64,000 bases of DNA, from the UHGV virus genome UHGV-0311442; one strand, 5' to 3'. Position 1 is the first letter of the stretch. Each line of letters starts with the position of its first letter. The notes beneath the pieces were generated by a model. That model worked only from the letters and a program-made list of their open reading frames with translations. It was not told where the DNA came from and did no database searches. Position numbers and translations under genes: made by a program. This DNA comes from a virus. Shown in pieces: positions 23,385 to 54,568 of this stretch.

Positions 23385-23412
23385 AATTCACTCCTAAAGA
23401 ATGTCTCACGTA

Positions 23413-23423
23413 GATAATATCTG
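23413..23423. promoter_or_regulatory. Copy of recurrent AT-rich motif GATAATATCTG in a divergent intergenic region
   Basis: Same motif recurs at 32529-32539, 42021-42031, 50241-50257 and 54527-54543, always in non-coding or gene-end positions. Confidence 0.3.
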
Positions 23424-23455
23424 TCTGACTTCTTTTTGAAATTGAGGTAGTAAGA

Positions 23456-32500: not shown

Positions 32501-32536
32501 TTTAATAACTCCAATGGTGTTACACCTGGATAATAT

Positions 32537-33205
32537 CTATCTAAGAATATTTTTAGCGAAAAAAGGATCGACTGTAAACTCCTTCACCTGTGAGTCATAA
32601 CCCGAATGTATTTGATCGCTACTGAGCAAATACTGGTCTAAATCGTGCGGAAGAATCCAAGAATCGCCTTGCTTAAAAATACCATAATCTGCTGTTCCTG
32701 CGGAAAAAATGATTTCCTCTGGAAACGAATAGATGTGGCGTAAGGCAAGATCGGATGGCTTTAACACGATTAATCGAACGGGATGTTGACTGACTGCCTC
32801 TTTAATAAACTGTTCACGATTAAACCAAATTATTTTTTCGGGGTAAGTTTCGAATTCAGCCCATGTCCGCGTGATAACTAATTTGGAAATCTTTCTCAAT
32901 TCTTCAGAATGCTCTGCGTAGCCAATACACTCCTTGCGTACTTCATGATTTTCTACCGATGCTGTGAATTTTTGGAATAGGTGTTGTTGGAAAAAGCCGT
33001 TCTCCGGGATATCACAACCCGCGTTGTATAGTGCAATGATCTCCCACAACAACGAAAGAGAAAACACAAATGCTAACTTTTCCACCACTTCCCAATCTTC
33101 GGAGTAAGGGGCTTTAAAGCCCCAATACTGCCGTGCGTTATACATAAAGTGAGTTTGTAAAAACCGGGGGGCTTTTGACAAGACCTCACTATAAACGATC
33201 AGCAT
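32537..33205 (-). CDS. Hypothetical protein (222 aa)
   Basis: ORF overlapping the upstream RNase H fusion gene by a few nt. Confidence 0.5.
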   Translation of the reverse strand: MLIVYSEVLSKAPRFLQTHFMYNARQYWGFKAPYSEDWEVVEKLAFVFSLSLLWEIIALYNAGCDIPENGFFQQHLFQKFTASVENHEVRKECIGYAEHSEELRKISKLVITRTWAEFETYPEKIIWFNREQFIKEAVSQHPVRLIVLKPSDLALRHIYSFPEEIIFSAGTADYGIFKQGDSWILPHDLDQYLLSSDQIHSGYDSQVKEFTVDPFFAKNILR

Positions 33206-34719
33206 TCAAGCTCCTTATCCGTCAGTATTCGTTTGTTTGAATAATAGCCGCACCACAACCCATGATATTTTTCCCCGATATAAACCAACGCATATTCGAT
33301 ATACTGCCGTTCTGGACGCCGTACCGCCACGTAGAAACGCCCTTCTGGTTCTTTCATACGGTTGATTTCCGTACGCGTCGGTATGTCGATACCACGAGTA
33401 AGGATAGTTTTAACCTTGTTTTTGCTACCAGGGATATGGATAGTTACGTCAAAACCTTTATCTACATTACGATAAAAGTCTTTCTTCGGCTTACCCTTCT
33501 CATCGTAAAGCAGGTCAGTAATGTCGTTCATTACGACTGAGTTTTTCCCCTCCATGGCATCGCGTAACCAACCTGCAAGCTCATCACGAATCGTAATGCA
33601 GCGATAAGACAATAACGCGGGACGAAGAATTCGTGTAATCGAAAGATCTTCAAACATCCATAGGTTTTTGTCTTCGCTAAAATGCATCCGATCGACAGGA
33701 ATACCGTTAGCTGCGGCTTCTGCGAACTTCTTACGTTTTACGAATAAGTTAAAAACAACGGCGATGGGATCAAACTGACGTAAACGGGGCACCCCTTCCC
33801 ATGCTTTCGCAGAGTGGGTATTTACCAACTCGTATACGTTGTTCCATGGTTCTTTGGTAAACATTACGCAGAATTGTGCGTCTGGAATGTACTTACCAAC
33901 GAAGACGATATCGTCCTTCTGTTTTGCATGGTTCCCACCGAACATGTAATAAAGTTTATTACCGTTAACTGTAACCGTGGGATGCGGTTCGTTCACCATC
34001 GGGTAACAGAACTTCGTAACACAGATATCGGGAAAAGCAGACAAATTGACACCTTCACCAACAACTTCTGGTTGCTGTTCTTCCTCAGGCATCTCGTCTT
34101 TTGACCAATACGGTGTATAGTCTAGCCCCTCACCTCGAGCCGAGATACTTGAACCTTTCCGTGCTAACTCGTCGGCACGCTCGTTTCCATAACGCCCTGA
34201 GTGACCTTTAATTTTAAGGACACGAACGCCTTTCCCTTCTTTCTTTAACCGCTGTTTAACCTCCCACATCCGTTGGATTAATTCCAAATTCGCAATGGGT
34301 GTGCCGTCCGCACGACGCCAGCCGCGTGCTGCCCAACCATCAATCCAATCGTTATACGTGTTGACAACGTAAGATGCGTCGATATAGATAACATAGTTTT
34401 TGGCAACGAAAGGGGCGTGTTCGAAGACGGTCAGGAAAGCCACGAGTTCTGCAACGTCGGAGTGTGACATTTTTGGTACAGGCACAACACCGTCAATAAA
34501 CTCCACGGTTTCTGGTAAAGGTGGAAGTTTTTCATCCTTGTTTATCTGGCGGTATCCTGACGTCGTAATCCCCTCGGGAATAGAGGGATGGCGGTAAACC
34601 CGACCATCCTCAATCGTTTCACGATTAAATAAGTATCCATGAATCCCCGCTCCTGTACCGAGCGGGGAGGTCAAATGGCTACCATCCGTGTAAATTACTG
34701 CAACATCAACGTTCTTCAT
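33199..34719 (-). CDS. Ribonuclease HI domain fused to a 300-aa C-terminal domain of unknown function
   Basis: 506 aa. N-terminal about 200 aa carry RNase HI motifs in order: AVIYTDGS, SDVAELVAFLTVFE, IYIDASYV, WIDGWAARGWRRADGTP, IKGHSGRYGNERADELA. Remaining 300 aa unassigned. Confidence 0.75.
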   Translation of the reverse strand: MKNVDVAVIYTDGSHLTSPLGTGAGIHGYLFNRETIEDGRVYRHPSIPEGITTSGYRQINKDEKLPPLPETVEFIDGVVPVPKMSHSDVAELVAFLTVFEHAPFVAKNYVIYIDASYVVNTYNDWIDGWAARGWRRADGTPIANLELIQRMWEVKQRLKKEGKGVRVLKIKGHSGRYGNERADELARKGSSISARGEGLDYTPYWSKDEMPEEEQQPEVVGEGVNLSAFPDICVTKFCYPMVNEPHPTVTVNGNKLYYMFGGNHAKQKDDIVFVGKYIPDAQFCVMFTKEPWNNVYELVNTHSAKAWEGVPRLRQFDPIAVVFNLFVKRKKFAEAAANGIPVDRMHFSEDKNLWMFEDLSITRILRPALLSYRCITIRDELAGWLRDAMEGKNSVVMNDITDLLYDEKGKPKKDFYRNVDKGFDVTIHIPGSKNKVKTILTRGIDIPTRTEINRMKEPEGRFYVAVRRPERQYIEYALVYIGEKYHGLWCGYYSNKRILTDKELEC

Positions 34720-34721
34720 TC

Positions 34722-35456
34722 TTAATCCCTGGTTAATTGATCACGAATCTGCGGCGCAACATACTCGCCAGTTTTCAGTTCTTCGTGACAGGCTTTGGCG
34801 CGTTCAAACCCGTATTGGCGGGTGACCAAAGCGAGGTGATAAATACGTGCCGTAGTGTAGGCTTCTTTTGCTGCATCCCACATTGCGTGGTGCTCAAAAG
34901 CGGGCTTACCGCGCGTCCAATAAACTTGCTCTACCGTTAAGTCGGGTTCGAAACCAAACGCAAAAGCTAAACGCTCTGCGGTACGATCGCTATCTAACGC
35001 GCTAAATTTACGGAACTTCCCTGGCGGGATATCGCATTGTGCGAATGCGTTCATGAAAACCGGCGCATCGAAGTCGGGACCGCGCATGGTAATAACAAAC
35101 TCATGCTTTGCGGTGATCTCTCCGAGCCATTTTTGCATCGCCCACAGCGCGTCTGGCAATGCTGTTGTTCCACCCCAGGCTTCTTCATACGCTTCACGAG
35201 ATGGTGCGTATTCGGGTTCACCTTTACCTTCCCACCAACCAACGGTTTGTGGGTCTTCGTGGAAAATGGCTTTTGCTTTAGGATCGTTAGGATCAATACG
35301 GATGTATGAAGAACCGACCATTTTCAAGGTAGGGACGTCAAAAGCCACTAAACCTGCACTCAACAGATAAGCATCAGGACGTAACGATTTGGTTTCTGCA
35401 TCAGCACCAATAACCAGTGTCGGTGTGTACGGGGTGACAATTTTTGGGTAGGTCAT
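34722..35456 (-). CDS. DEDDh 3-prime to 5-prime exonuclease, oligoribonuclease-like
   Basis: 244 aa; Exo I LVIGADAETKSL (DxE), Exo II PDFDAPVF, Exo III HHAMWDAAKEAY (H-x4-D), resembling Orn/RNase T family. Confidence 0.6.
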   Translation of the reverse strand: MTYPKIVTPYTPTLVIGADAETKSLRPDAYLLSAGLVAFDVPTLKMVGSSYIRIDPNDPKAKAIFHEDPQTVGWWEGKGEPEYAPSREAYEEAWGGTTALPDALWAMQKWLGEITAKHEFVITMRGPDFDAPVFMNAFAQCDIPPGKFRKFSALDSDRTAERLAFAFGFEPDLTVEQVYWTRGKPAFEHHAMWDAAKEAYTTARIYHLALVTRQYGFERAKACHEELKTGEYVAPQIRDQLTRD

Positions 35457-35546: not shown

Positions 35547-36005
35547 TCAGTACAAACACGATGTCAAGTATTGGTTATACGAATCGAGCAGTGTCTGACG
35601 GTCGGAACGGTAATTCCACAACAAATTATTGAGTTTACGCGATAAATCACGGCTAATCTCTTGGGGCGTTAAAGAACTTTCATCAAGAGATAAGCGTTCA
35701 GGTACAACATGTAACTTCGGTAACTCATAACGTTCACAAAGTGGAGCCAGCATTGGTGGGCTCCAGCCACGTTTAACGGCTTGTTGGTTTAAATTTCGGG
35801 TGTAGACATAAACGTAGTAAGCATAGGTGTTGACATCCGCAACATACTCACGCATTGCATTATTGTCAATTTTCCAATTCACCATTATTGGCGGTGTAGG
35901 AGGAAGTTCCAGTGGCCTATAAGCTGGACGTTTAACTTCGTCGCCGTAGCTATTACTCACCAACCCCACGAACACCATCATGATGAATAACAGCATTTTC
36001 ATCAA
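35547..36005 (-). CDS. Secreted Pro-rich protein with N-terminal signal peptide (152 aa)
   Basis: N-terminus MMKMLLFIMMVFVGLVSNSYG then PAYRPLELPPTPP; no lipobox Cys. Confidence 0.5.
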   Translation of the reverse strand: MMKMLLFIMMVFVGLVSNSYGDEVKRPAYRPLELPPTPPIMVNWKIDNNAMREYVADVNTYAYYVYVYTRNLNQQAVKRGWSPPMLAPLCERYELPKLHVVPERLSLDESSLTPQEISRDLSRKLNNLLWNYRSDRQTLLDSYNQYLTSCLY

Positions 36006-36509
36006 TCACTCCTTAGAAGACGTTAGCGTCTTTATGATCTCCTGTCGAAAACTGTTCGCATTTAAATTGCCAACAGGTCTCGCCGAAGCCTCTTTACGTT
36101 GTTCTGGTGTTGAAGCTGGATTAACAGGAGTTTCTGGTTTTGTCGAAGACAGATCCTTCGCCGTACCGCTCGCTTTCGATGAATTAAACGTGCTTTCATA
36201 TGGCGGTTTCTGGCCGAGGCAAACGAAGAGCCTGTCGTATAACTTCCCATTATCTTCTTTTAGTTTATCTCGATCTTGTTTCATCTCTTGGTAAGACTGC
36301 GACATATAAGTGTCATGAGACTGCACTGCAACGAGCGCGTGAAACTGTTGTACATAGGCGTAGGAGACGAAGCCAGAATACGACAACAAGATCGTGATGA
36401 TTAAAGTCATTATCTTGCTTGCTCTTGATACGTTTTCTCCTTCTCCTGGTTTAAATGCTTCCATTAACATCTGAAGGAAGAACGGAAGCACTTTAAAAAA
36501 TGAACCCAT
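36006..36509 (-). CDS. Membrane protein with one internal TM helix and coiled-coil region (167 aa)
   Basis: Hydrophobic segment IMTLIITILLSYSGFVSYAYV then charged heptad-like segment; abuts the downstream secreted protein gene. Confidence 0.5.
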   Translation of the reverse strand: MGSFFKVLPFFLQMLMEAFKPGEGENVSRASKIMTLIITILLSYSGFVSYAYVQQFHALVAVQSHDTYMSQSYQEMKQDRDKLKEDNGKLYDRLFVCLGQKPPYESTFNSSKASGTAKDLSSTKPETPVNPASTPEQRKEASARPVGNLNANSFRQEIIKTLTSSKE

Positions 36510-40723: not shown

Positions 40724-41233
40724 TTAGAAGAACGGCTGGTTTGGAATGACAGCGTACTCTAAAATGAACATGTGTTCTGGGGCGTCTTCTTTACGCCAGA
40801 CTTTGTGCGTCGTCACAAGTTTTTCCAGAATCGTTAAAAAACTACGCTGGCAGTATGTGTTTTCACCAAGCAGTAGATTTTGAAGTTCTACAGTAGCGTC
40901 CATATACGCCTGTTTAAAGACTAAACTACGATTATACTGTCCGGTAAAATTCCAAAGCAAGACTTTCCCTTCTTCGGTTTCTTTTACCGTTGGCCGTAAA
41001 CCACAAATCCACAACAAGGCAAGGTTGACGTTCCAGTCAAACTCTAAACCTTCTTCTTCGTCATCACCGAATGCTGTGGGTAAAGCATCGTAAAATTCGT
41101 GTTTCTCTGCGAATTCTTCATCTGACTTAATCTCGTCTTCGATGCTGCTTCGGACGATACTGTAAACGTCTTTCGCGGTCAATTGTGCGGCTTTTGTAAT
41201 GCCTTTATACCAATCGGTTACTACGATGCTCAA
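40724..41233 (-). CDS. Hypothetical protein (169 aa)
   Basis: ORF between the lytic transglycosylase and the membrane protein. Confidence 0.5.
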   Translation of the reverse strand: MSIVVTDWYKGITKAAQLTAKDVYSIVRSSIEDEIKSDEEFAEKHEFYDALPTAFGDDEEEGLEFDWNVNLALLWICGLRPTVKETEEGKVLLWNFTGQYNRSLVFKQAYMDATVELQNLLLGENTYCQRSFLTILEKLVTTHKVWRKEDAPEHMFILEYAVIPNQPFF

Positions 41234-41955
41234 AGGGTAACTCCTCTATTGATTGGAAAACTCGTGTTTATCGTATCCCAAATTTTACTAACTTCCGCCA
41301 ATTGAATCTGACGTGGTGTTTTCTTCGCAAACGCAAGCTGACGTGGGGCCGAGCCCACAACAACAGGCACATCGATTTTCGCGCTATAGAACGCGGCGTC
41401 TTTCATAAAGCCTGCCATTTCTCGTTGTGCTGCTCGAGATTTGCTTTTGATTCGCGTGTGAGCGCCACTTTCACCCCAGTGGTAAGCTAACGCAACTTCA
41501 GCCATGGTGGGCTTGCGTTTGAGTCGTTTGGTTAACCCCTTTTCAAGATGTTTAACATACGCGGCAGCCAGCAAAACAGCATTACGCGGATTATACAAAT
41601 CGGCGTTCTGACTAAGACCTAATTCTTTTCCATAAAGCCTTAGCAGATTACGCTTGGTACTTGGAAGCATCTGTACCAGGCTGTGTGCTCGTGAGCTTTT
41701 GTTGTAAGCCTTGGGATCAAAACGCGATTCACGATAAATCAGCGTAATCATCAGCTTAGGATCAACGCCTTGCTTTCGAGAGATTTCCACAATTAACGGG
41801 CTGACTTTTTCGAACCGATGTTGGATTTGTGTAAACTCACGCTGATGCTTAGATTGCGGCGTTGATGTTGACGCCTGTGCGTTAAACGCGAAAAGTGTTA
41901 CCAGTAAAAGAAAGAAGATACGAAACATTTTGTTTCTCCAGTTGGATTTATACAT
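41230..41955 (-). CDS. Secreted or signal-anchored soluble lytic transglycosylase; endolysin candidate
   Basis: N-terminal hydrophobic segment MFRIFFLLLVTLFAFNAQA, then SLT motif LIYRESRFDPKAYNKSSRAHSLVQMLPST. Start may be the internal Met at about 41928. Confidence 0.6.
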   Translation of the reverse strand: MYKSNWRNKMFRIFFLLLVTLFAFNAQASTSTPQSKHQREFTQIQHRFEKVSPLIVEISRKQGVDPKLMITLIYRESRFDPKAYNKSSRAHSLVQMLPSTKRNLLRLYGKELGLSQNADLYNPRNAVLLAAAYVKHLEKGLTKRLKRKPTMAEVALAYHWGESGAHTRIKSKSRAAQREMAGFMKDAAFYSAKIDVPVVVGSAPRQLAFAKKTPRQIQLAEVSKIWDTINTSFPINRGVTL

Positions 41956-42020: not shown

Positions 42021-42031
42021 GATAATATCTA
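42021..42031. promoter_or_regulatory. Copy of recurrent motif GATAATATCTA
   Basis: Overlaps the stop of the macro-like gene, upstream (in minus orientation) of the lytic transglycosylase gene. Confidence 0.3.
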
Positions 42032-42589
42032 TTTAAAAGAGTTTGGAATTAATGACTCTGCTTCTCGGTACAGCTTATCGGGTAAGTATAACGTGTAGTG
42101 TTGTCTCCTCGGTTCAAGTTTTTTGTAAAGCCACAAAAAGATTTCTTGTCTTTCCCAGGAATCTAACCACCCATTTGCCATCCCCAGTGGAGGGATAGCA
42201 ACGCTGGTATCCAGTTCCTCAACACAATCTGCTAATGCGGTAATGCCCGCAGTAACATAAGAAACCTGGGACTTTAAACGCCAATGTGTTTTCGTTGGGA
42301 GCAAGATGCACTTTTCATCAGGGTAAACGTAAACGCTTCCAATCTTAATTTCGTCTTCGCGACACCGCTTACGGTAATCTTGATAAAGGTTGGGGTAGCG
42401 TTCACGGCACGCCAGTGCAATACCGCGACCCATCGCTCCTACGCAGTTAATGGTAACGACTTTATAGTCTTCGGGCGCATTAAAAAGATCGTTACCAATT
42501 TCAGATTCTTTACGTACCGTTAACATAACGAAACGCCCGGAGTTGATGTGTAGTATTAAAACGTGTACCGCCGATTGATAACTCGACAA
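42029..42589 (-). CDS. Macro-domain-like protein (putative ADP-ribose binding or processing)
   Basis: YKVVTINCVGAMGRGIALA fits the Gly-rich macro loop pattern and SVAIPPLGMANGWLD fits the second macro motif; probable start at internal Met near 42526. Confidence 0.4.
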   Translation of the reverse strand: MSSYQSAVHVLILHINSGRFVMLTVRKESEIGNDLFNAPEDYKVVTINCVGAMGRGIALACRERYPNLYQDYRKRCREDEIKIGSVYVYPDEKCILLPTKTHWRLKSQVSYVTAGITALADCVEELDTSVAIPPLGMANGWLDSWERQEIFLWLYKKLEPRRQHYTLYLPDKLYREAESLIPNSFK

Positions 42590-44020: not shown

Positions 44021-44200
44021 CTAATTCCGCCATTCGCATTCGCGTTGACGCCAAATTGAACCCCACGATAGTTTAATCAGATAAGATGAAACTACCCATA
44101 AAATCATCACCACACAAAACATGACATAAAGAACCGCTAGAATGGACATGAAGCCAAACCCTGCCGCATCCACAATACGACGGAACCAATCAGTTTGCAT
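44021..44200 (-). CDS. Small membrane protein (59 aa)
   Basis: ATG at 44198-44200 with AAGGAG upstream; hydrophobic core FGFMSILAVLYVMFCVVMILWVVSSYLI. Confidence 0.4.
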   Translation of the reverse strand: MQTDWFRRIVDAAGFGFMSILAVLYVMFCVVMILWVVSSYLIKLSWGSIWRQRECEWRN

Positions 44201-46694
44201 AAACAATTTTTACTCCTTCGTTATACACCGCAGGCAATGTCACCCCTTCCGGTTCGATGACACAGTACGATGCTTCATTAAGTTTAGAATGAACCTCGGC
44301 TTCGTGGGAGACTACCAACAGTTGTGAAAATTCTCCTGAGTTTGCTAACGTTTTAATAAAGCCGACCAGGTTGTTACGGTGCTCCTCATCCATGCCCTCC
44401 GAAGGTTCATCCAAAAGCAACGGAAACTGATGCAACTTCAGCGCTTTGTACGCAGTCAGTCTGAACATCAGATTAAATATCGCACGCTGCGCCTTTGACC
44501 CTTTACGCACGTCAGGAACAGGCTCAGGATGCGTTTTTAGCTGGACAGGAAAAGTATAATCCAAATCGCCGTCAGTGAGATCACAAGGCATAACACGCAT
44601 GGGGTACGTCCAGACCTGTTCGATATAACGCGTCATTAACTCTGTGATTCTAACGATAGCGTTGTAAAAATACTTTCTAAGTACACCCTTTTCTGGCGAG
44701 AAGGCTTGAATCATCAGTTTGTTATTGAACTGCTGGGCTTGTAAGTCAGCAAGTTCGCGTTCCAAACTGTTGAGCTGGTTCAATTCATTTTCCATCTGAC
44801 GATAACGTTCGCGTGCGGTTGTAAAAGCATCCAGCTTCCCTTCTCGTGTACGTAAGAGTTCCTCGACGACCGTATTTGTCAACGTAACCTTAACGTCACT
44901 CTCTAACCGTTCGAATAACGCACTGAAATCATCTACAGCACGTTTAACATTCACTAGATAGGTAAGTGTCGTGTTAGCCAGTTCGTGCTCTCTACGACGC
45001 ATTGAGAGCATCTCTGTGGCTTTACCTAATCGCGACTGTTGGAAGGCGATCTTTTGTTGTAAAGCACCATCGACGTTACCAACGGCCGCTACGGCATCCT
45101 GCCATTCTTTTTCCGCCTTCACTAACCGTTGTCTGGTTTCATGGTACTCAATAGCAGAGTACAACTCACCGTCAAACGCTGCGCATAGACTCCCGAACTG
45201 CTCGCGAGACTCTGTGAAAACGTTACGTTCTTGCAAACGCTTAAAGAACATACTCAAAACAGGGTCCTTTGAATACGTCAGTACAATCTCACGAACCTGC
45301 CGCATATAAGTTACATCAGATTCTAATTCAACACGATCGCGTAATAAGGTCTCTAACTGCGTTTGCAGTTCCGTGCGCTGCTGTTGCTGTCCACGAATCG
45401 AAGACTCAAGTTCAGGCAAAGAACGCGTAACGCCTGGTCGAAACTTAAACCGACACTGCGGACAATCCACTTCCGCTGTTTCTAAGTAGTGGTTACGTTC
45501 GTGATTTAAATTCTGTAAAACGTTCTCCACTCGCTGGAGTCTATCCCGCAACCCGGCGGTTTTTTGATCCATCACCAGAAGCCGTTCTTCCAAAACATTG
45601 AGTTTTTCGGTCGAATGAATTGCGTCCAGCGTTGTTCCTAACCGTTGTCCCCAAACACGCGCGTCGGTAGCCGCACGAAGTTGGTCTAAATTGACGTTAT
45701 CGTTAAATAGACCCGGAAAGAGATGTTCAGTGTCCCATTTGGTAAGTAACTCACGTAAACGTGCCAGCGTATTCTTGAGACCTTCGTGATTCCGCATCAG
45801 GTAGTCCTGTCGTGTCGACTCATCCATCAATAACGACAAGTCTTTATTCAACATCGATACCTCTGTTTCAGTAGACACGACAGCTTCGCGGGCGGTCGCC
45901 TCGTTTTGTCGTGCGACCTGTATCTGTTCATCAGTAGGCAGACCACCACGATGTTGTAATATTGCGTCGATGGTTGGACCCAAGCTGTTTAATGACGCTT
46001 GGATTGTTTCGATGGTGACGCCGCGATTTAATCCTGGCAACTGTTCGATTTCTCGGTTCAGTTCACGTAAATCCGATTCCAAACCTTTTAATCTCGTCGC
46101 TAACTGCTGCCGTTCTTCCTCGTTCTCAATAACACGCGTCCGTAATTCGGCGATCTTACGGCTGGTGATTTCAATACCCCCATTTAAGGCAGTAAGGTTT
46201 TTACGTAAACGTTGATAAAACCCTAACGCGTAAGTGAGGTCAGAGGTGCTTAAACGGTAAAACCACTTGCGACGTAATTCGGTTCCCGCATCGGTTAACA
46301 AGACCTCACCATTTAATAGTTCTTTAATTTCTTTCGTAATACCCGTGATTTCTTCAACACGGGAGTTGTAGACTTTCGCATTACCTTGCTCGACGATCTT
46401 TGCCCCCGTGGTCAGGTTCTCAATATCACAAACCAAAGAGTTGCCTTTACGGGCAACTTTGAATCGATAGCGTTGATCGCCGACTAAACAGTAATTCGTG
46501 TAAGAACCGCCGTCCCTGAATTCAGTTTTAGCTGGTGCTAAGGGTAAGAACACAGACAGTAGACTGGTTTTCCCGCAGCCGTTCCCACCCAGGATAATTG
46601 TTGTTGGAGACTGGATAGTGAAATCGAAGGTTTCAATTTCATGTAACCCCATCCCCGTAAAACCTTTGAGTATAATGCGTTCAACTTTTAGCAT
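44190..46694 (-). CDS. Rad50/SbcC-like ATPase with coiled coil and CxxC zinc hook
   Basis: Start refined to ATG at 46692-46694 (GGAGGTG upstream; track start is TTG at 46769). Walker A GGNGCGKTS, long coiled coil with central CPQC, C-terminal LLLDEPSEGMDEEH and VVSHE. Confidence 0.75.
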   Translation of the reverse strand: MLKVERIILKGFTGMGLHEIETFDFTIQSPTTIILGGNGCGKTSLLSVFLPLAPAKTEFRDGGSYTNYCLVGDQRYRFKVARKGNSLVCDIENLTTGAKIVEQGNAKVYNSRVEEITGITKEIKELLNGEVLLTDAGTELRRKWFYRLSTSDLTYALGFYQRLRKNLTALNGGIEITSRKIAELRTRVIENEEERQQLATRLKGLESDLRELNREIEQLPGLNRGVTIETIQASLNSLGPTIDAILQHRGGLPTDEQIQVARQNEATAREAVVSTETEVSMLNKDLSLLMDESTRQDYLMRNHEGLKNTLARLRELLTKWDTEHLFPGLFNDNVNLDQLRAATDARVWGQRLGTTLDAIHSTEKLNVLEERLLVMDQKTAGLRDRLQRVENVLQNLNHERNHYLETAEVDCPQCRFKFRPGVTRSLPELESSIRGQQQQRTELQTQLETLLRDRVELESDVTYMRQVREIVLTYSKDPVLSMFFKRLQERNVFTESREQFGSLCAAFDGELYSAIEYHETRQRLVKAEKEWQDAVAAVGNVDGALQQKIAFQQSRLGKATEMLSMRRREHELANTTLTYLVNVKRAVDDFSALFERLESDVKVTLTNTVVEELLRTREGKLDAFTTARERYRQMENELNQLNSLERELADLQAQQFNNKLMIQAFSPEKGVLRKYFYNAIVRITELMTRYIEQVWTYPMRVMPCDLTDGDLDYTFPVQLKTHPEPVPDVRKGSKAQRAIFNLMFRLTAYKALKLHQFPLLLDEPSEGMDEEHRNNLVGFIKTLANSGEFSQLLVVSHEAEVHSKLNEASYCVIEPEGVTLPAVYNEGVKIVYAN

Positions 46695-46772
46695 ACCCAC
46701 CTCCATAAAGACGGAGTGTGGTGTAAAAAGAAAAAAATAAAGAAAGGGAGAACCCGAAGGTTCTCCCAAACG

Positions 46773-47381: not shown

Positions 47382-47401
47382 CTGGTCTTTCCTTTTAGAT
47401 C

Positions 47402-47430
47402 AAAAAAAGAAGCCCCGAGTAAACGGGGCC
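47402..47430 (-). terminator. Rho-independent terminator (minus strand)
   Basis: Stem GCCCCG/CGGGGC, loop AGTAAA; A-run on the plus strand upstream. Confidence 0.55.
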
Positions 47431-47437
47431 GGGCTAA

Positions 47438-47914
47438 TTACAGCCCTAAGTGCGTGAGTGATAAAATAGGTTGTGTTTCACCTTTAATCGTCGCGAAGGA
47501 ACGATACATTTCTGCGTTACTTGAAAAAACTTCGTTAGCAACGATACATTCACCCGTCTCTAAAGAAAGGAGATAAATGTAGTCGCTCCATACGCTTTGT
47601 ACCAACACCCACTCAAGTGCGGTATCATTTTCGCGTGTTGTTCGCAGGTGGTGAAAGTAAGGACGGATTGCATCAACTGCCGCATTAAAACGACGGTGAT
47701 AAATTCGGGTTAAATCAAAGGTCCAGATTGTTTCCAGGTCGACTGGATGTAGTGTGCGCACCGTTTCGATAATTGTCGACTGATCATTAAGGCGCGAGGC
47801 TTCGGCGATACGCAGCAGTTTCCAGGCCACCGTTAAGTTGTGGCGAATTTGTTCAGGTTTAGCCGACAGGTCATGATGAAATTGCGCAGCTTGGTAAACG
47901 TTAGATAATTGCAT
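47438..47914 (-). CDS. Hypothetical protein (158 aa)
   Basis: ATG with AAAGGAG upstream. Confidence 0.5.
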   Translation of the reverse strand: MQLSNVYQAAQFHHDLSAKPEQIRHNLTVAWKLLRIAEASRLNDQSTIIETVRTLHPVDLETIWTFDLTRIYHRRFNAAVDAIRPYFHHLRTTRENDTALEWVLVQSVWSDYIYLLSLETGECIVANEVFSSNAEMYRSFATIKGETQPILSLTHLGL

Positions 47915-47942
47915 TTTAATACTCCTTTAGGTAAACATGTCG

Positions 47943-47971
47943 TAAAAAGGACCCCGGACGTACCGGGGTCA
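47943..47971 (-). terminator. Rho-independent terminator (minus strand)
   Basis: Stem GACCCCGG/CCGGGGTC, loop ACGTA; A-run on the plus strand upstream. Confidence 0.55.
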
Positions 47972-47980
47972 AGACTACAC

Positions 47981-48370
47981 TCAATGATCTAATTCAATAG
48001 CACCAGCCATCTTGCCCCGTTCTTCGATAACAATCAGATAACGGTCGCGAGATTTGCTTTTAGCGAGAGTTAAGACAACAGTAGGGTCGCATGTTTTCGT
48101 GGTGATAGGAAGAACCTCTCTTTCGACGGAATCGAGCAGAAAGTAATAACCTGCGGGACACATTGTGCCACCGTCAGCTTTTACCAGAATATAGCGCCCG
48201 TCTGCGCCGACTTCTTGGCAGATTGTTTCACCGACTTCGCAAACTTCAAACCCCGGAGGATTGTACTGATAATCGGTATTGTTGTTTGGGGTTAGCAGTA
48301 AATCGTTAACTTGAGTAGATGCTGCTACACTCAGGGAGAAGAAGAATGCTAAAACGCAGACGAGACGCAT
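47981..48370 (-). CDS. Secreted Cys-containing protein S1 (129 aa)
   Basis: Signal peptide MRLVCVLAFFFSLSVAAS; CEVGETICQE and GRYILVKADGGTMC match S2. Confidence 0.55.
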   Translation of the reverse strand: MRLVCVLAFFFSLSVAASTQVNDLLLTPNNNTDYQYNPPGFEVCEVGETICQEVGADGRYILVKADGGTMCPAGYYFLLDSVEREVLPITTKTCDPTVVLTLAKSKSRDRYLIVIEERGKMAGAIELDH

Positions 48371-48380
48371 GAGTTACTCC

Positions 48381-48791
48381 TTAAATTTTAAGTTTATCCA
48401 TAGCTACAACGATAGGTTTTTCCGAAGTGTCTAATATCCCTACCATTGGCACACCATCTACGACTTCGAAGAATGGTTTGTTATTACCAGAGCATAGACG
48501 TTTGTCGTTGTATTCGAGACGTTGGGCCTTCCACGTTTCGAGGTTGAGTACAGACATTGGGCTGTCGTAGCACCAGGCACCACCTTGCTCAACGATGAAT
48601 ACGTATCTGCTACCTTTGTATTTAAACAGACTCTTCGCCTGACAGTACAACCCGTCAATTTCCGTACAATAGAAATCATCGGTGCTATTGACGTATTTAA
48701 TATTGTCTGGCAACTGAATCGTCTTTGCTGTAGCGTTGACAGAGAACAGAACAGCCATTGCAATGAGAAGAGTGTTGATGATAGTTTTCAT
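48381..48791 (-). CDS. Secreted Cys-containing protein S2 (136 aa), paralog of S1
   Basis: Signal peptide MKTIINTLLIAMAVLFSVNATA; CTEIDGLYCQA and SRYVFIVEQGGAWC match S1. Confidence 0.55.
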   Translation of the reverse strand: MKTIINTLLIAMAVLFSVNATAKTIQLPDNIKYVNSTDDFYCTEIDGLYCQAKSLFKYKGSRYVFIVEQGGAWCYDSPMSVLNLETWKAQRLEYNDKRLCSGNNKPFFEVVDGVPMVGILDTSEKPIVVAMDKLKI

Positions 48792-48802
48792 GATAAAAGT
48801 CC

Positions 48803-49288
48803 TTAGTATTTAGATTGTTCTACGTATTTCTTAACCAGGTAAGCGAATTCAGCAACACCGATATCACCGAACCAAATCAGGTAACCGGGGTCGATGTTGT
48901 AGTAATAGCCGACGAGTTTCTTGGTGTGTGGGTTGTATAGCGTTACGATGTATTCCCAACCACAAGCGTTAGCTTTACAACCGCCGCTTTCAATCCAGAT
49001 TTTGTTGTTGATATTTACCGGATACATGTTACCGCCAGGGCCATCCATGTAACCTTTAGAGCCGAACATACCATCCAGTCCCACAGGGTCTAGTGTTTTA
49101 TCAACAACGGCTTTAAACGACTTATCGGTATCGTACAAGTCGTTGATGTTTGGGCACGCATTTGGCTGACCTTCCCAAGCGTTTCCATCGCAGGTAAGCA
49201 ATTCGTCTACGGAGGCCGCATCTACAGTTGGCGTGGCACCGATAAACAAGAAAACCAGAAAGAACATCAGTGTATGTAAACGTTTCAT
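48803..49288 (-). CDS. Secreted protein S3 (161 aa) with CKxxxC disulfide-loop motif
   Basis: Signal peptide MKRLHTLMFFLVFLFIGATPTVDA; GGCKANACGWEYIV weakly recalls the Ivy CKPHDC loop context. Confidence 0.5.
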   Translation of the reverse strand: MKRLHTLMFFLVFLFIGATPTVDAASVDELLTCDGNAWEGQPNACPNINDLYDTDKSFKAVVDKTLDPVGLDGMFGSKGYMDGPGGNMYPVNINNKIWIESGGCKANACGWEYIVTLYNPHTKKLVGYYYNIDPGYLIWFGDIGVAEFAYLVKKYVEQSKY

Positions 49289-49306
49289 TGTAACTACTCC
49301 TTTAGA

Positions 49307-49699
49307 TTATTCGGCAGGACGATTTAAGGTAACGCGTCCGATTAATTCGGCGTTGTGAAAGAAGTCCACAGCGGTATAATTACCAACGGATAATGGGTGA
49401 ATACTAACTGACATTACTTTCGGTTGTTCGCAAGCAATATCGGTTAGACGTTGGTAGACTTGCGCACGGGTGTCAGCAATGAGTAACCCCGTACACGCTT
49501 CACCACGCACTAAACGATAAACTTGCAGTTTACCGAAACTGCGCATTAACGTAGGCGTCTCATCCGGGTTGATAATCGGTGAGTCAGGAGCCGGTTCGTA
49601 ATAGCGGACATCCGAATCACCGAAAGCATAAGTGCCAGTAATTCCGACCGCACAGAAAATAATGATAGTATAAAGTATAGTTCTGATATTCATTTTCAC
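49307..49699 (-). CDS. Secreted protein S4 (130 aa)
   Basis: Signal-peptide-like N-terminus MKMNIRTILYTIIIFCAVGITGTYA; two Cys in mature part. Confidence 0.5.
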   Translation of the reverse strand: MKMNIRTILYTIIIFCAVGITGTYAFGDSDVRYYEPAPDSPIINPDETPTLMRSFGKLQVYRLVRGEACTGLLIADTRAQVYQRLTDIACEQPKVMSVSIHPLSVGNYTAVDFFHNAELIGRVTLNRPAE

Positions 49700-49721
49700 G
49701 CACTCTAAAAAAGATTAATAG

Positions 49722-50183
49722 TTATTTGTTAGGACGGGTGTGCCCACAGTTTTGGAAGAAAGTTTCAGATAAACGATCGCCTTCTACGGTAAAGTTAGCG
49801 GCATCGTTACCATTGATACTCACACTGAAAGTTTTGGCATTACCGATAGCATTAACGAAAGCAACCCAAGCGTGTTCTGCCTTGTCACTACCGTCCACGG
49901 TAGGGATGTTATAGGTTTTGCCGTTTACGACAATATCCATCGTGTTATCTTCAGCGTTAGTTGCACCTACGGGTTCCCCGTAATACCAAACCATGCGACC
50001 GTAAAATTTGCGATTCGCAGTTTCAGTGTCACAGTTGATAGACAGTCCGTTTCCGGCGGTGTCTTCAATTTCGTAAACTGCCTGGCCAGGGTTTTGTATT
50101 TGTTCCCAGCTGTTGATAGCGGCGTGTGCAGTATTGAAACCGATTACGAAAAGGGCGATTAAAAAGGAAGTGAAGATTTTCAT
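49722..50183 (-). CDS. Secreted protein S5 (153 aa)
   Basis: Signal peptide MKIFTSFLIALFVIGFNTAHAA; first gene of the secreted-protein run. Confidence 0.5.
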   Translation of the reverse strand: MKIFTSFLIALFVIGFNTAHAAINSWEQIQNPGQAVYEIEDTAGNGLSINCDTETANRKFYGRMVWYYGEPVGATNAEDNTMDIVVNGKTYNIPTVDGSDKAEHAWVAFVNAIGNAKTFSVSINGNDAANFTVEGDRLSETFFQNCGHTRPNK

Positions 50184-50232
50184 TGTTTTGCTCCTTTATG
50201 GCGTTAATGTATAAAGAGTTAATCGTAACTCT

Positions 50233-50257
50233 CACCTAAGTAATATATATCTGAAAT
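50233..50257. promoter_or_regulatory. Conserved 25-mer CACCTAAGTAATATATATCTGAAAT upstream of the secreted-protein operon
   Basis: 23 of 25 positions identical to CACTTAAGTAAAATATATCTGAAAT at 54519-54543; reverse complement contains TATATTAC. Confidence 0.4.
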
Positions 50258-50277
50258 TATTTTTAATATTAACGAAC

Positions 50278-50310
50278 AAAAAATAAAAGGTGGGGGTAAA
50301 CCCCCACCGA
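50278..50310 (-). terminator. Rho-independent terminator (minus strand)
   Basis: Stem GGTGGGGG/CCCCCACC, loop TAAA; A-run on the plus strand upstream. Confidence 0.65.
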
Positions 50311-50312
50311 TG

Positions 50313-50891
50313 TTATACATCGAACCGGTACTGCCGGGAGTTAATGAGGAACTCGGTATTCAGCTCAATCCATTCGAGTAAATCACCCAACGGTAATCGG
50401 TTTGGGTTTTCTAACTCAATAGACGCTACCGGATAAGAGTTTACTAATTCCGTAATTGCCTCAATACCCTCTTGCGTTCCGTCGTCTTCTAAGGTGATTG
50501 TAAACGGCATATCGGTACGATCCGCATTAGGATTGTACAAACTGACTTTCGTTGCTTGGACAAACGCAGTCAGGTCGTCACGTATAATGCGTGTATCAGG
50601 CGCTAGAACTACCCAGAGATGTTGTCCTGGCTGGAGTTTACGTTTTGCGTAGTTTAAGAACGGGTTAGCCGGTAAGCTTTCCAAACCACTGCAAATGTTC
50701 CGTAAATGAATCCCTCGTGGGTCTTTATAGTCCACGCTGAAGATTCCTACCGGTTCCTTCGCTGCCTGTTTTATCAGAAAGACCAATACCGTGTCCGCTC
50801 TTTCTGGTAAGGAAAGCTCTATTCCCTCAAGCTCCCCATCGACGAGGTTTTCCAACCAAACGTCTTTTCGCATTTCTATTAATCGGTACAC
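50313..50891 (-). CDS. Hypothetical protein (192 aa)
   Basis: ORF with ATG start. Confidence 0.5.
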   Translation of the reverse strand: MYRLIEMRKDVWLENLVDGELEGIELSLPERADTVLVFLIKQAAKEPVGIFSVDYKDPRGIHLRNICSGLESLPANPFLNYAKRKLQPGQHLWVVLAPDTRIIRDDLTAFVQATKVSLYNPNADRTDMPFTITLEDDGTQEGIEAITELVNSYPVASIELENPNRLPLGDLLEWIELNTEFLINSRQYRFDV

Positions 50892-50903
50892 GGTACCACC
50901 TCA

Positions 50904-54517: not shown

Positions 54518-54518
54518 T

Positions 54519-54543
54519 CACTTAAGTAAAATATATCTGAAAT
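54519..54543 (+). promoter_or_regulatory. Conserved 25-mer CACTTAAGTAAAATATATCTGAAAT, candidate promoter element for the plus-strand gene at 54569
   Basis: Near-identical copy of the element at 50233-50257; ends 25 nt before the ATG at 54569. Confidence 0.4.
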
Positions 54544-54568
54544 CAATTCCGATCTAAGGAACGTCCCG

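Follow-up and report, generated by a model that had tools for sequence, protein, structure and literature searches.

A five-gene cassette of putative periplasmic proteins, with a divergent Ivy-superfamily member, behind an early-type promoter motif in a jumbo phage and, in part, in CP4-like islands of Escherichia coli

The stretch of DNA analysed here, referred to as the window, comprises 64,000 nucleotides of the virus genome UHGV-0311442. On its minus strand, five small genes, S5-S4-S3-S2-S1 in the order of transcription, are preceded by a terminator hairpin and an early-type promoter motif and are followed by a second terminator hairpin (Table 1). An earlier note, made from the sequence, had described these genes as an operon of exported proteins. 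All five open reading frames (ORFs) were found on the minus strand at the coordinates that it gave, between 47981 and 50183, and the anatomy of the unit together with heuristic export signals supports a single operon. The genes are separated by gaps of 22, 18, 11 and 10 nt, and a ribosome-binding site of the form AAGGA(G) lies ahead of four of the five, S4 being the gene that has no clear one. The downstream hairpin starts 11 nt past the S1 stop codon. The identical arrangement of hairpin and then promoter was seen in two relatives of the phage, L013 and L015.

Table 1. Features of the cassette and related elements in the window (slashes mark predicted signal peptide cleavage sites)
Feature	Position	Strand	Description
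Terminator-like hairpin	50289..50308	-	GGTGGGGG-TTTA-CCCCCACC then T-run; 8 pairs, 7 G-C; closes upstream transcription unit
Early-promoter-like element	50214..50268	-	core TTTCAGATATATATTAC at 50256-50240, then TTAGGTGAGAG
S5	49722..50183	-	153 residues; signal peptide AHA/A; 2 mature Cys; YfjT-family
S4	49307..49699	-	130 residues from GTG; signal peptide TYA/F; 2 mature Cys; SPN3US gp180 ortholog
S3	48803..49288	-	161 residues; signal peptide VDA/A; 4 mature Cys (C33, C45, C104, C109); divergent Ivy-superfamily
S2	48381..48791	-	136 residues; signal peptide ATA/K; 4 mature Cys; SPN3US gp182 ortholog
S1	47981..48370	-	129 residues; signal peptide VAA/S; 4 mature Cys; SPN3US gp183 ortholog
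Terminator-like hairpin	47950..47970	-	GACCCCGG-TACGT-CCGGGGTC then T-run; 8 pairs, 7 G-C; operon end
SLT-domain lytic transglycosylase, outside operon	41230..41955	-	241 residues; Pfam SLT 1.1e-14; predicted signal peptide AQA/S
Three more early-promoter-like copies	23406-23436, 32522-32552, 54518-54548	-	71-87% identical to the 50232-50262 copy

The possibility that the ORFs arose by chance was ruled out by the ratio of nonsynonymous to synonymous substitution rates (dN/dS), which was 0.04-0.22 for the five genes in comparisons with related phages and island copies and is indicative of purifying selection. S4 more likely begins two codons further in than the GTG at 49699, with the ATG at 49693, because the gene calls in close relatives give a protein of 128 residues, as this ATG does, starting MNIRT.

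Signal peptides were scored by a home-made rule for the n-, h- and c-regions, under which the n-region must be positive, the hydrophobic core must span 9 or more residues without a charge, and positions -3 and -1 must be occupied by small residues. All five products comply, with hydrophobic cores of 9-13 residues, and the signal peptides proposed in the earlier note were recovered throughout. Signal-peptide-like N-termini were found in 8 of the 78 putative genes in the window, 5 of these 8 being the S1-S5 run, and the probability of such a five-gene run by chance is about 2e-4. The cleavage motifs are those of signal peptidase I substrates. No lipobox (L-x-x-C) was present in S1-S5, and a lipoprotein nature was therefore ruled out. 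The numbers of mature cysteines are even and conserved. Because the signal peptides are of the cleavable Sec type and the cysteine numbers are even, the proteins should be soluble, disulfide-bonded and active in the periplasm.

The conserved element that the earlier note had placed upstream of the operon and taken to be regulatory is present, with its core at 50240-50256. The 55-bp element is the sole part of the region 47400-50900 that has a DNA match to SPN3US-like phages (~91%). The core TTTCAGATATATATTAC followed by TTAGGTGA, with the element read as TTTCAGATATATATTACTTAGGTGA, agrees with the published consensus of phiKZ-like early promoters, which is TATATTAC for phiKZ, ...TTTRARR_BTATATTACDWHDGTG for 201phi2-1 and TTTCARRYAKATATTATYWAAGTGWA for N1M2/OBP (PMC7058600 Table 2). 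The placement is also that of phiKZ-type (chimallivirus) early promoters, the motif coming after a terminator and ahead of an operon. It is kept ahead of the cassette in SPN3US, L010, L013, L015, L018 and L025-L028. The element belongs to a family of 31-nt repeats with four copies in the window; at the copy near 54.5 kb a hairpin comes after. In phiKZ-like phages the early promoters are read by an RNA polymerase that is injected with the DNA (PMC11512511). Since the motif matches promoters served by this virion RNA polymerase, it may reasonably be inferred that the polymerase would express the cassette early. In two relatives, a 123-residue, non-secreted gene lies directly after the early promoter, where it replaces S5 (L010, 4243-4614) or precedes it (L018, 1770-2141); the first operon slot is therefore variable.

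The proteins of the window are distant kin of those of Salmonella phage SPN3US and Erwinia phage phiEaH2 (45-50% identity), and the synteny shared with these phages runs through a gp177 homolog, the cassette, gp184, gp185 and the SMC-like gp186. Nearer relatives are uncultured contigs of 220-228 kb (L010, L013, L018-L021) and NZ_CP173450.1 (L015), a circular molecule of 221,873 bp from the urinary E. coli strain 98232 in which the cassette and its flanking genes have about 80% DNA identity to the window. This record, filed as 'plasmid p98232-contig_4' in a clinical E. coli assembly, is evidently, from its gene content, a jumbo-phage genome. Because the closest relatives include this record from a urinary E. 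coli isolate, the host of the window phage is most likely E. coli. Genes near the cassette, at 33199-35456, 42029-42589 and 44190-46769, encode proteins with an RNase H domain, an Rv2179c-like 3'-5' exoribonuclease, a Macro-domain and SMC/SbcC-like features; the SMC/SbcC-like neighbour, of ~830-860 residues, is the homolog of SPN3US gp186.

The orthologous cassette in SPN3US (gp180-gp183) and phiEaH2 (AFQ96649-AFQ96652) occupies the same position, between the homologs of gp177/gp179 and of gp184-gp186, with the same promoter motif in front and signal peptides on all of its members. It differs from that of the window in having a third S1/S2 paralog, gp181, in the slot held here by S3, and in lacking S5. 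Each of the 11 IMG/VR loci examined contains the S4-S2-S1 triad, with signal peptides on every copy and no change in the cysteine counts, whereas S3 and S5 are confined to the E. coli-infecting clade, S5 being missing from L010. Since S3 and S5 are limited to this clade while the triad is found in all SPN3US-like loci, the cassette is, as judged from these comparisons, a conserved S4-S2-S1 triad with two accessory genes, S3 and S5. S3-like phage genes were encountered in uncultured contigs and in the one plasmid-filed record only. Moreover, the S3 proteins of phages whose S4 and S5 are 94-95% identical have only 63-65% identity.

The members of the SPN3US and phiEaH2 cassettes are annotated as 'hypothetical protein'. 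No relevant literature was found on SPN3US gp180-183 or on SPN3US signal peptides, and the terms superinfection, periplasm, signal peptide and secreted do not occur in a 2026 review of jumbo phages. The possibility was considered that the five proteins are not secreted, and that their hydrophobic N-termini are membrane anchors or the assembly propeptides of virion or cytoplasmic proteins. The use of a home-made heuristic alone to judge the signal peptides leaves room for this explanation, as does the lack of a clear ribosome-binding site in S4. However, the signal-peptide architecture and the even, conserved cysteines are kept in orthologs that are 30-50% identical, S3 belongs to a periplasmic family, and gp180-183 are not mentioned in the main text of the paper on the SPN3US virion and essential genes. 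The chance that the proteins are not exported is therefore considered to be very slight.

S3 is the one member of the cassette that could be assigned to an inhibitor family. The earlier note had seen in it a weak resemblance to Ivy-type inhibitors, centred on the sequence GGCKANACG. This loop is present at residues 102-110, and the relation to Ivy proved to be correct by transitive profile homology and by the predicted fold. Direct searches gave faint signals. Pfam returned nothing for S3 at E<=1, the NCBIfam Ivy model NF007443 scored 18.6 bits where its cut-off is 180 (E 1.3e-3), and the Ivy structure 1gpq gave E 0.77, with the two loops in register. An E. coli homolog of S3 reached E 7.7e-3 with Pfam Ivy (16.8 bits against a cut-off of 21). 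A profile of the S3 family retrieved 53 proteins at E<=1e-3 among 1.84 billion representative proteins, and 23 of the 28 members aligned to it were matched by Pfam Ivy, the best at 7.6e-12. When the widened profile was run against the PDB, Ivy chains were the only matches (1gpq and 1xs0, 7e-12; 1uuz, 1.9e-9; 4ps6, 2.5e-9). Furthermore, an AlphaFold2 model of S3 showed the Ivy fold, an antiparallel sheet flanked by helices. A Foldseek search of viral predicted structures (BFVD) with the same model returned nothing at E<=0.001. Profile homology and model together make it well supported that S3 is a divergent member of the Ivy superfamily and not a canonical Ivy.

The loop of S3, C104-K-A-N-A-C109, falls in register with the CKPHDC loop of Ivy (E. 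coli YkfE, P. aeruginosa PA3902; PF08816; 1GPQ, 1XS0, 1UUZ, 4PS6) and retains the cysteine pair, the lysine and the loop length. In the wider S3 subfamily the loop consensus is CE(A/P)HNC, the histidine being mostly kept, and the alleles of the E. coli islands described below have the loops CKAHAC (L003), CKSNAC, CKSDAC and CKANTC (P0011, P0012). S3 also has, in comparison with Ivy, an extra N-terminal cysteine pair (C33, C45) that is common to its subfamily. By the heuristic rule, the signal peptide (VDA/A) is conserved in all homologs. Ivy is a gene of bacterial chromosomes, whereas S3 is carried by a lytic jumbo phage and preceded by an early-type promoter motif.

The triad was identified through its orthologs. 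S1 has 47-50% identity to gp183 and AFQ96652 and matches phrog_5248 (3.6e-31), S2 has 30-32% identity to gp182 and AFQ96651, and S4 has 49% identity to SPN3US gp180 and 44% to phiEaH2 AFQ96649 and matches phrog_9424 (1.6e-40). The paralogy of S1 and S2, proposed earlier from shared patterns, was borne out by hhalign (91%, E 1e-6, 87 columns) over residues 32-119, outside the signal peptide; the families of gp181 and S2 are likewise related (93%, E 3e-7). A common cysteine framework, corresponding to C44, C51, C71 and C94 of S1, runs through the S1/S2/gp181 family (phrog_5248, phrog_8968). The pattern C-x-E-x4-C-Q put forward for the two paralogs holds as an approximate likeness. Its exact spacing does not, S1 having CEVGETICQ and S2 CTEIDGLYCQ.

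Other relationships of these proteins were considered and found little or no support. S4 matched phrog_5248 over its full length with hmmscan (E 3.2e-3), but hhalign lent no support to S4 as a third paralog of S1 and S2 (0.4% and 0.1%). A relationship of S1/S2 to S3 was dismissed, hhalign having aligned the signal peptides alone. YfjS and YafY (PF20494), exported proteins of the cryptic prophages CP4-57 and CP4-6 of E. coli K-12, have a motif of about 50 residues with two cysteines in common with S1 and S2. The hhalign comparison of the S1/S2/gp181 and YfjS families gave 88% with signal peptides included, a score driven by these, and 13% once they were trimmed (E 2e-3, 51 columns, both cysteines aligned), which is not significant. 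The value for S4 against YfjS was 0.3%, and no hit of S1, S2 or S4 to PF20494 was obtained in Pfam at E<=1. Moreover, YfjS and YafY belong to the lipoproteins, and a lipobox is missing from S1, S2 and S4. No credible family for S1, S2, S4 or S5 emerged from searches of Pfam, NCBIfam and PADLOC. A profile search of the PDB with the S1/S2 family found nothing significant (best, ThreeFoil at 0.017), nor did that with the S4 family (best, ribosomal S10 at 0.87). The AlphaFold2 model of S1, from an alignment of 7 sequences, had a predicted local distance difference test (pLDDT) score of 46.5 and was unusable.

S5 was compared with YfjT of the cryptic prophage CP4-57 of K-12. The two are 27% identical over 135 residues by BLASTP (E 7e-14 in a small database), and the Pfam family PF27224 (YfjT) is precomputed on S5 homologs that are 75-94% identical. 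On these grounds S5 is a member of the YfjT family, represented in K-12 by YfjT and YkfB. A PDB profile search with the S5/YfjT family gave nothing significant; the best matches were shark variable new antigen receptor (VNAR) immunoglobulin (Ig) V domains (0.028-1), and the Ig-like hint is only a lead. YfjS-YfjT and YafY-YkfB are adjacent pairs of exported proteins that lie in the same kind of island as the chromosomal copies of S3 and S2.

These chromosomal copies are widespread. Homologs of S3 in E. coli are 59-66% identical, and S3 DNA matches 2,323 of 5,426 complete genomes at ~70%. Intact S3+S2 pairs are carried by 1,884-2,452 of the 5,426 genomes (~35-45%), the lower count referring to pairs that are at least 80% covered. 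The carriers include uropathogenic and commensal strains, among them Nissle 1917, CFT073, UTI89, 536 and ATCC 25922. The S3 homologs are located in CP4-like islands. On one side they are flanked by a block encoding a dynamin-like GTPase, YjcZ and patatin, and on the other by a DUF932-antirestriction-RadC-CbtA/CbeA block. In many islands an S2 homolog of 136 residues, 65-76% identical, lies 15 nt 3' of the S3 homolog, as in the phage. The full-length chromosomal match is restricted to positions 48356-49299 of the window, that is, to S3+S2. A copy of S4 is also present in the islands. It is frameshifted and internally deleted, and over the C-terminal 54 residues it retains 78% identity to the S4 of the window. 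The first island gene, which encodes an exported protein of 180 residues, has a near-perfect copy of the early-promoter motif upstream. Neither this protein nor S3 or S5 had a tblastn match in 50,697 phage records. Many island alleles of the S3 homolog in E. coli are annotated as proteins of 223-227 residues (P0007, P0009, P0011, P0012; L016 6806-7483). In these long alleles the first ~63 residues of the 180-residue protein are fused in frame before the S3 signal peptide, and the body of the 180-residue gene and the S4 remnant have seemingly been deleted.

Recent exchange between phage and island is indicated by the relative L013, which matches the island L016 over 949 bp at 88%. The S3 allele of L013 is 95% identical in DNA to chromosomal copies, with a synonymous divergence (dS) of 0.17, a value below those found for each of the seven genes compared between the window and L013. 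It is well supported that S3 and S5 were drawn from a gene pool that these phages have in common with CP4-like islands; the two genes may have moved in either direction. S2 and S4 belong to the ancestral gene set of the phage lineage, and the S4 copy of the islands is in decay; at least the island variant with S3, S2 and a dead S4 therefore came from a phage. The S3+S2 pair is retained intact while the adjoining S4 decays.

The motif itself extends well beyond E. coli. The strict pattern TTTCAGAYAKATATTAYNNNNGTGA occurred 35 times in bacterial contigs representing one genome per species (~100,000 species genomes), with 28 of the occurrences in Enterobacterales, and the chance expectation, estimated from base composition, is well below one. 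In most of the Enterobacterales hits (28 species), the motif TTTCAGAYAGATATTATCTNNGTGA lies ~80 nt upstream of the gene for a YfjP/YkfA-like GTPase that heads a CP4-like operon (places examined, L029-L062; also L005 1439, L016 1132, L003 7031 and L016 6736). Weaker copies are present in CP4-57 and CP4-6 of K-12 (L009 19454, L017 7052), and 2,585 of the 5,426 E. coli genomes contain a 59-nt stretch spanning the core, in up to 4 places each. The islands may use or mimic a jumbo-phage early promoter, or may simply have inherited one. The GTPase-headed operon runs into a variable cassette of exported proteins that may be 180-residue-like, YfjS, YfjT, IrmA, gp181-like, S2-like or Ivy-like. IrmA, an interleukin-receptor mimic (PF18673, E 4.8e-41), is encoded 2896 nt downstream of the motif in L030. 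Proteins resembling gp181 and S2 and an Ivy-like protein of 322 residues were found in islands of Citrobacter, Klebsiella, Kluyvera and Salmonella diarizonae (L030, L040, L041, L043, L061). A two-way link can be imagined, in which the islands captured a phage exclusion module (S3+S2, a decaying S4 and the promoter) and, with the motif ahead of their main operon in at least 28 species, would have their periplasmic cassette, and perhaps further genes, activated when a jumbo phage brings in its virion RNA polymerase, but this is regarded as a long shot.

Because the promoter is of the early type and Sec-type export signals are present, the cassette could serve to remodel the envelope or the early compartment of infection, acting on receptors, on outer-membrane or periplasmic machinery or in the lumen of a membrane-bound early vesicle, which would be topologically periplasmic, in support of the first steps of the phage. 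The triad is strictly conserved in the SPN3US-like phages examined, and in relatives of these phages a lipid vesicle encloses the injected genome at an early stage of infection. However, homologs of S2/gp181, S3 and S5 reside in phage-free islands of many Enterobacterales, where no phage compartment is required, and the proteins have no transmembrane anchor or known targeting feature, so that the idea is purely inferential and is held to be improbable.

The reading that we favour, at about even odds, is that the cassette inhibits muralytic enzymes in the periplasm early in infection, which would result in superinfection exclusion in the phage and in phage restriction in the islands. It is suggested by the early-type promoter, the export signals, the Ivy fold of S3, the retention in the host and the turnover of alleles, taken with the precedents of Ivy, T4 Spackle and the E. 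coli protein Hypo_04657. The periplasm would be loaded early with inhibitors of wall-degrading enzymes. The rigid, disulfide-bridged loop CKANAC of S3 would block the active site of a lysozyme-like enzyme or lytic transglycosylase, namely the one with which a second, incoming phage pierces the wall. Through the identical activity, S3+S2 would be retained in islands as an anti-phage factor, while S1, S2, S4 and S5 would be further periplasmic binders, directed at other envelope or phage targets. The swapping of S3 alleles and the exchange with islands would fit the specificity of an arms race. The defence models of PADLOC-DB gave no hit at E<=0.1 for S1-S5, the 180-residue island protein or YfjT.

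The model for such a cassette is Spackle (gp61.3) of phage T4, an early product that acts in the periplasm against the tail lysozyme of a superinfecting phage (PMC7677548). Spackle, the inhibitor of the gp5 tail lysozyme, is likewise early, small and equipped with a signal peptide. It is, however, a single gene and not common to host islands, in contrast to the five-gene cassette described here; no homology of Spackle to the cassette was detected, and no Spackle structure was among the structural matches of the S3 model. A second precedent is Hypo_04657 of E. coli O121, an Ivy-like protein with a loop, CKANTC, that has no histidine; its knockdown raises the plating of T7 and its authors suggest that it inhibits phage lysozyme (PHAGEPACK preprint, bioRxiv 10.1101/2024.04.20.590424). 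P0011 and P0012, two island alleles with 59-61% identity to S3, have this same loop. Hypo_04657 is presented there as an isolated chromosomal hypothetical protein, with no link to jumbo phages, an S2 homolog, islands or a phage promoter. T7 gp16 carries a transglycosylase domain that is used during entry. It would be a more natural target for a periplasmic protein than the cytoplasmic T7 amidase proposed by the authors of the preprint.

Several observations weigh against inhibition of muralytic enzymes. The CKPHDC loop of Ivy enters the active site of lysozyme, and S3 has other residues in place of its histidine, proline and aspartate; without the loop histidine S3 may not inhibit at all or may have another target. 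When scored directly, S3 fails the curated Ivy thresholds, and its model is of moderate confidence (pLDDT 67.5), with Foldseek E values of 0.02-0.3. The export signals come from the home-made rule alone. Furthermore, the exclusion model depends on one accessory gene, the core S4, S2 and S1 having no family assignment. Hypo_04657 was placed in the S3 family from the loop motif alone, and its phenotype concerns T7 and not a jumbo phage, in a study that is a preprint (bioRxiv 10.1101/2024.04.20.590424). Finally, the presence in island cassettes of IrmA, as a cytokine-receptor mimic, points to interaction with an animal host rather than to phage defence.

This last observation leads to the possibility that the proteins protect the infected cell, or in islands the bacterium, from environmental or animal lysozyme or from innate-immune factors, the cassette being a fitness cassette with the canonical role of Ivy. 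Such a role would be in keeping with the place of S3 in the Ivy superfamily, the histidine retained in the island allele of L003, the occurrence of IrmA, alongside YfjS and YfjT, at the same position of island cassettes and the carriage of S3+S2 by CFT073, UTI89, 536 and Nissle 1917. However, the core triad is conserved in phages of the plant pathogen Erwinia, for which vertebrate lysozyme is irrelevant, and early expression by a phage polymerase in a lytic phage would give only minutes of benefit. Moreover, the phage alleles of S3 have lost the histidine and the reported knockdown phenotype is one of phage plating, so that a protective role of this kind is judged to be quite doubtful.

The window also encodes a potential target of its own, an SLT-domain protein whose gene lies ~6 kb from the cassette. 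Its N-terminus, MFRIFFLLLVTLFAFNAQA/S, is by the heuristic rule a strong, cleavable-looking signal peptide, and its homologs in SPN3US-like phages, annotated as 'putative endolysin' or 'transglycosylase', are encoded a few kb from the cassette. The SLT protein would be a candidate target of S3. An endolysin exported by the Sec route would require a mechanism of control in the periplasm. Two adjacent genes at 35547-36005 and 36006-36509 of the minus strand encode proteins of 152 and 167 residues with hydrophobic N-termini and no Pfam match; these could be related to lysis, as spanin- or holin-like proteins, although neither has a lipobox.

The cassette, and S3 especially, could thus serve the timing of lysis by restraining the phage's own SLT transglycosylase until lysis, in place of the membrane tether of signal-anchor-release (SAR) endolysins. 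SPN3US-like phages keep, near the cassette, a putative endolysin with both an SLT domain and a cleavable-looking signal peptide, and in those examined this secreted protein and the S4-S2-S1 triad are both found throughout. Additionally, Ivy has been reported to control bacterial lytic transglycosylases besides lysozyme, according to the statement in PMC3660660 that cites Clarke 2010. On the other hand, S3 is absent from SPN3US, phiEaH2 and L025-L028, all of which retain the SLT protein, and the cassette has a promoter of the early class, while an endolysin needs control late. The retention of S3+S2 in islands that have no endolysin would also be left unexplained. Control of lysis is for these reasons considered unlikely.

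In the papers checked, the early genes of jumbo phages are almost all without an assigned function, and the cassette offers a concrete entry point that is cheap to test, since one of its five small products belongs to an inhibitor family whose structure is understood. If S3 blocks a wall-piercing enzyme of phages, the problem met by T4 Spackle would have been solved a second time by unrelated means, and the Ivy family would be extended from defence against lysozyme to conflicts between phages and between phage and host. A role of S3+S2 in restricting phages, if true, would bear on host range in phage therapy. The common promoter motif raises the question of whether chromosomal islands sense infection by jumbo phages; if the two-way link were true, it would mean a host immunity that is triggered by the transcription machinery of the invader and built from domesticated phage exclusion genes.

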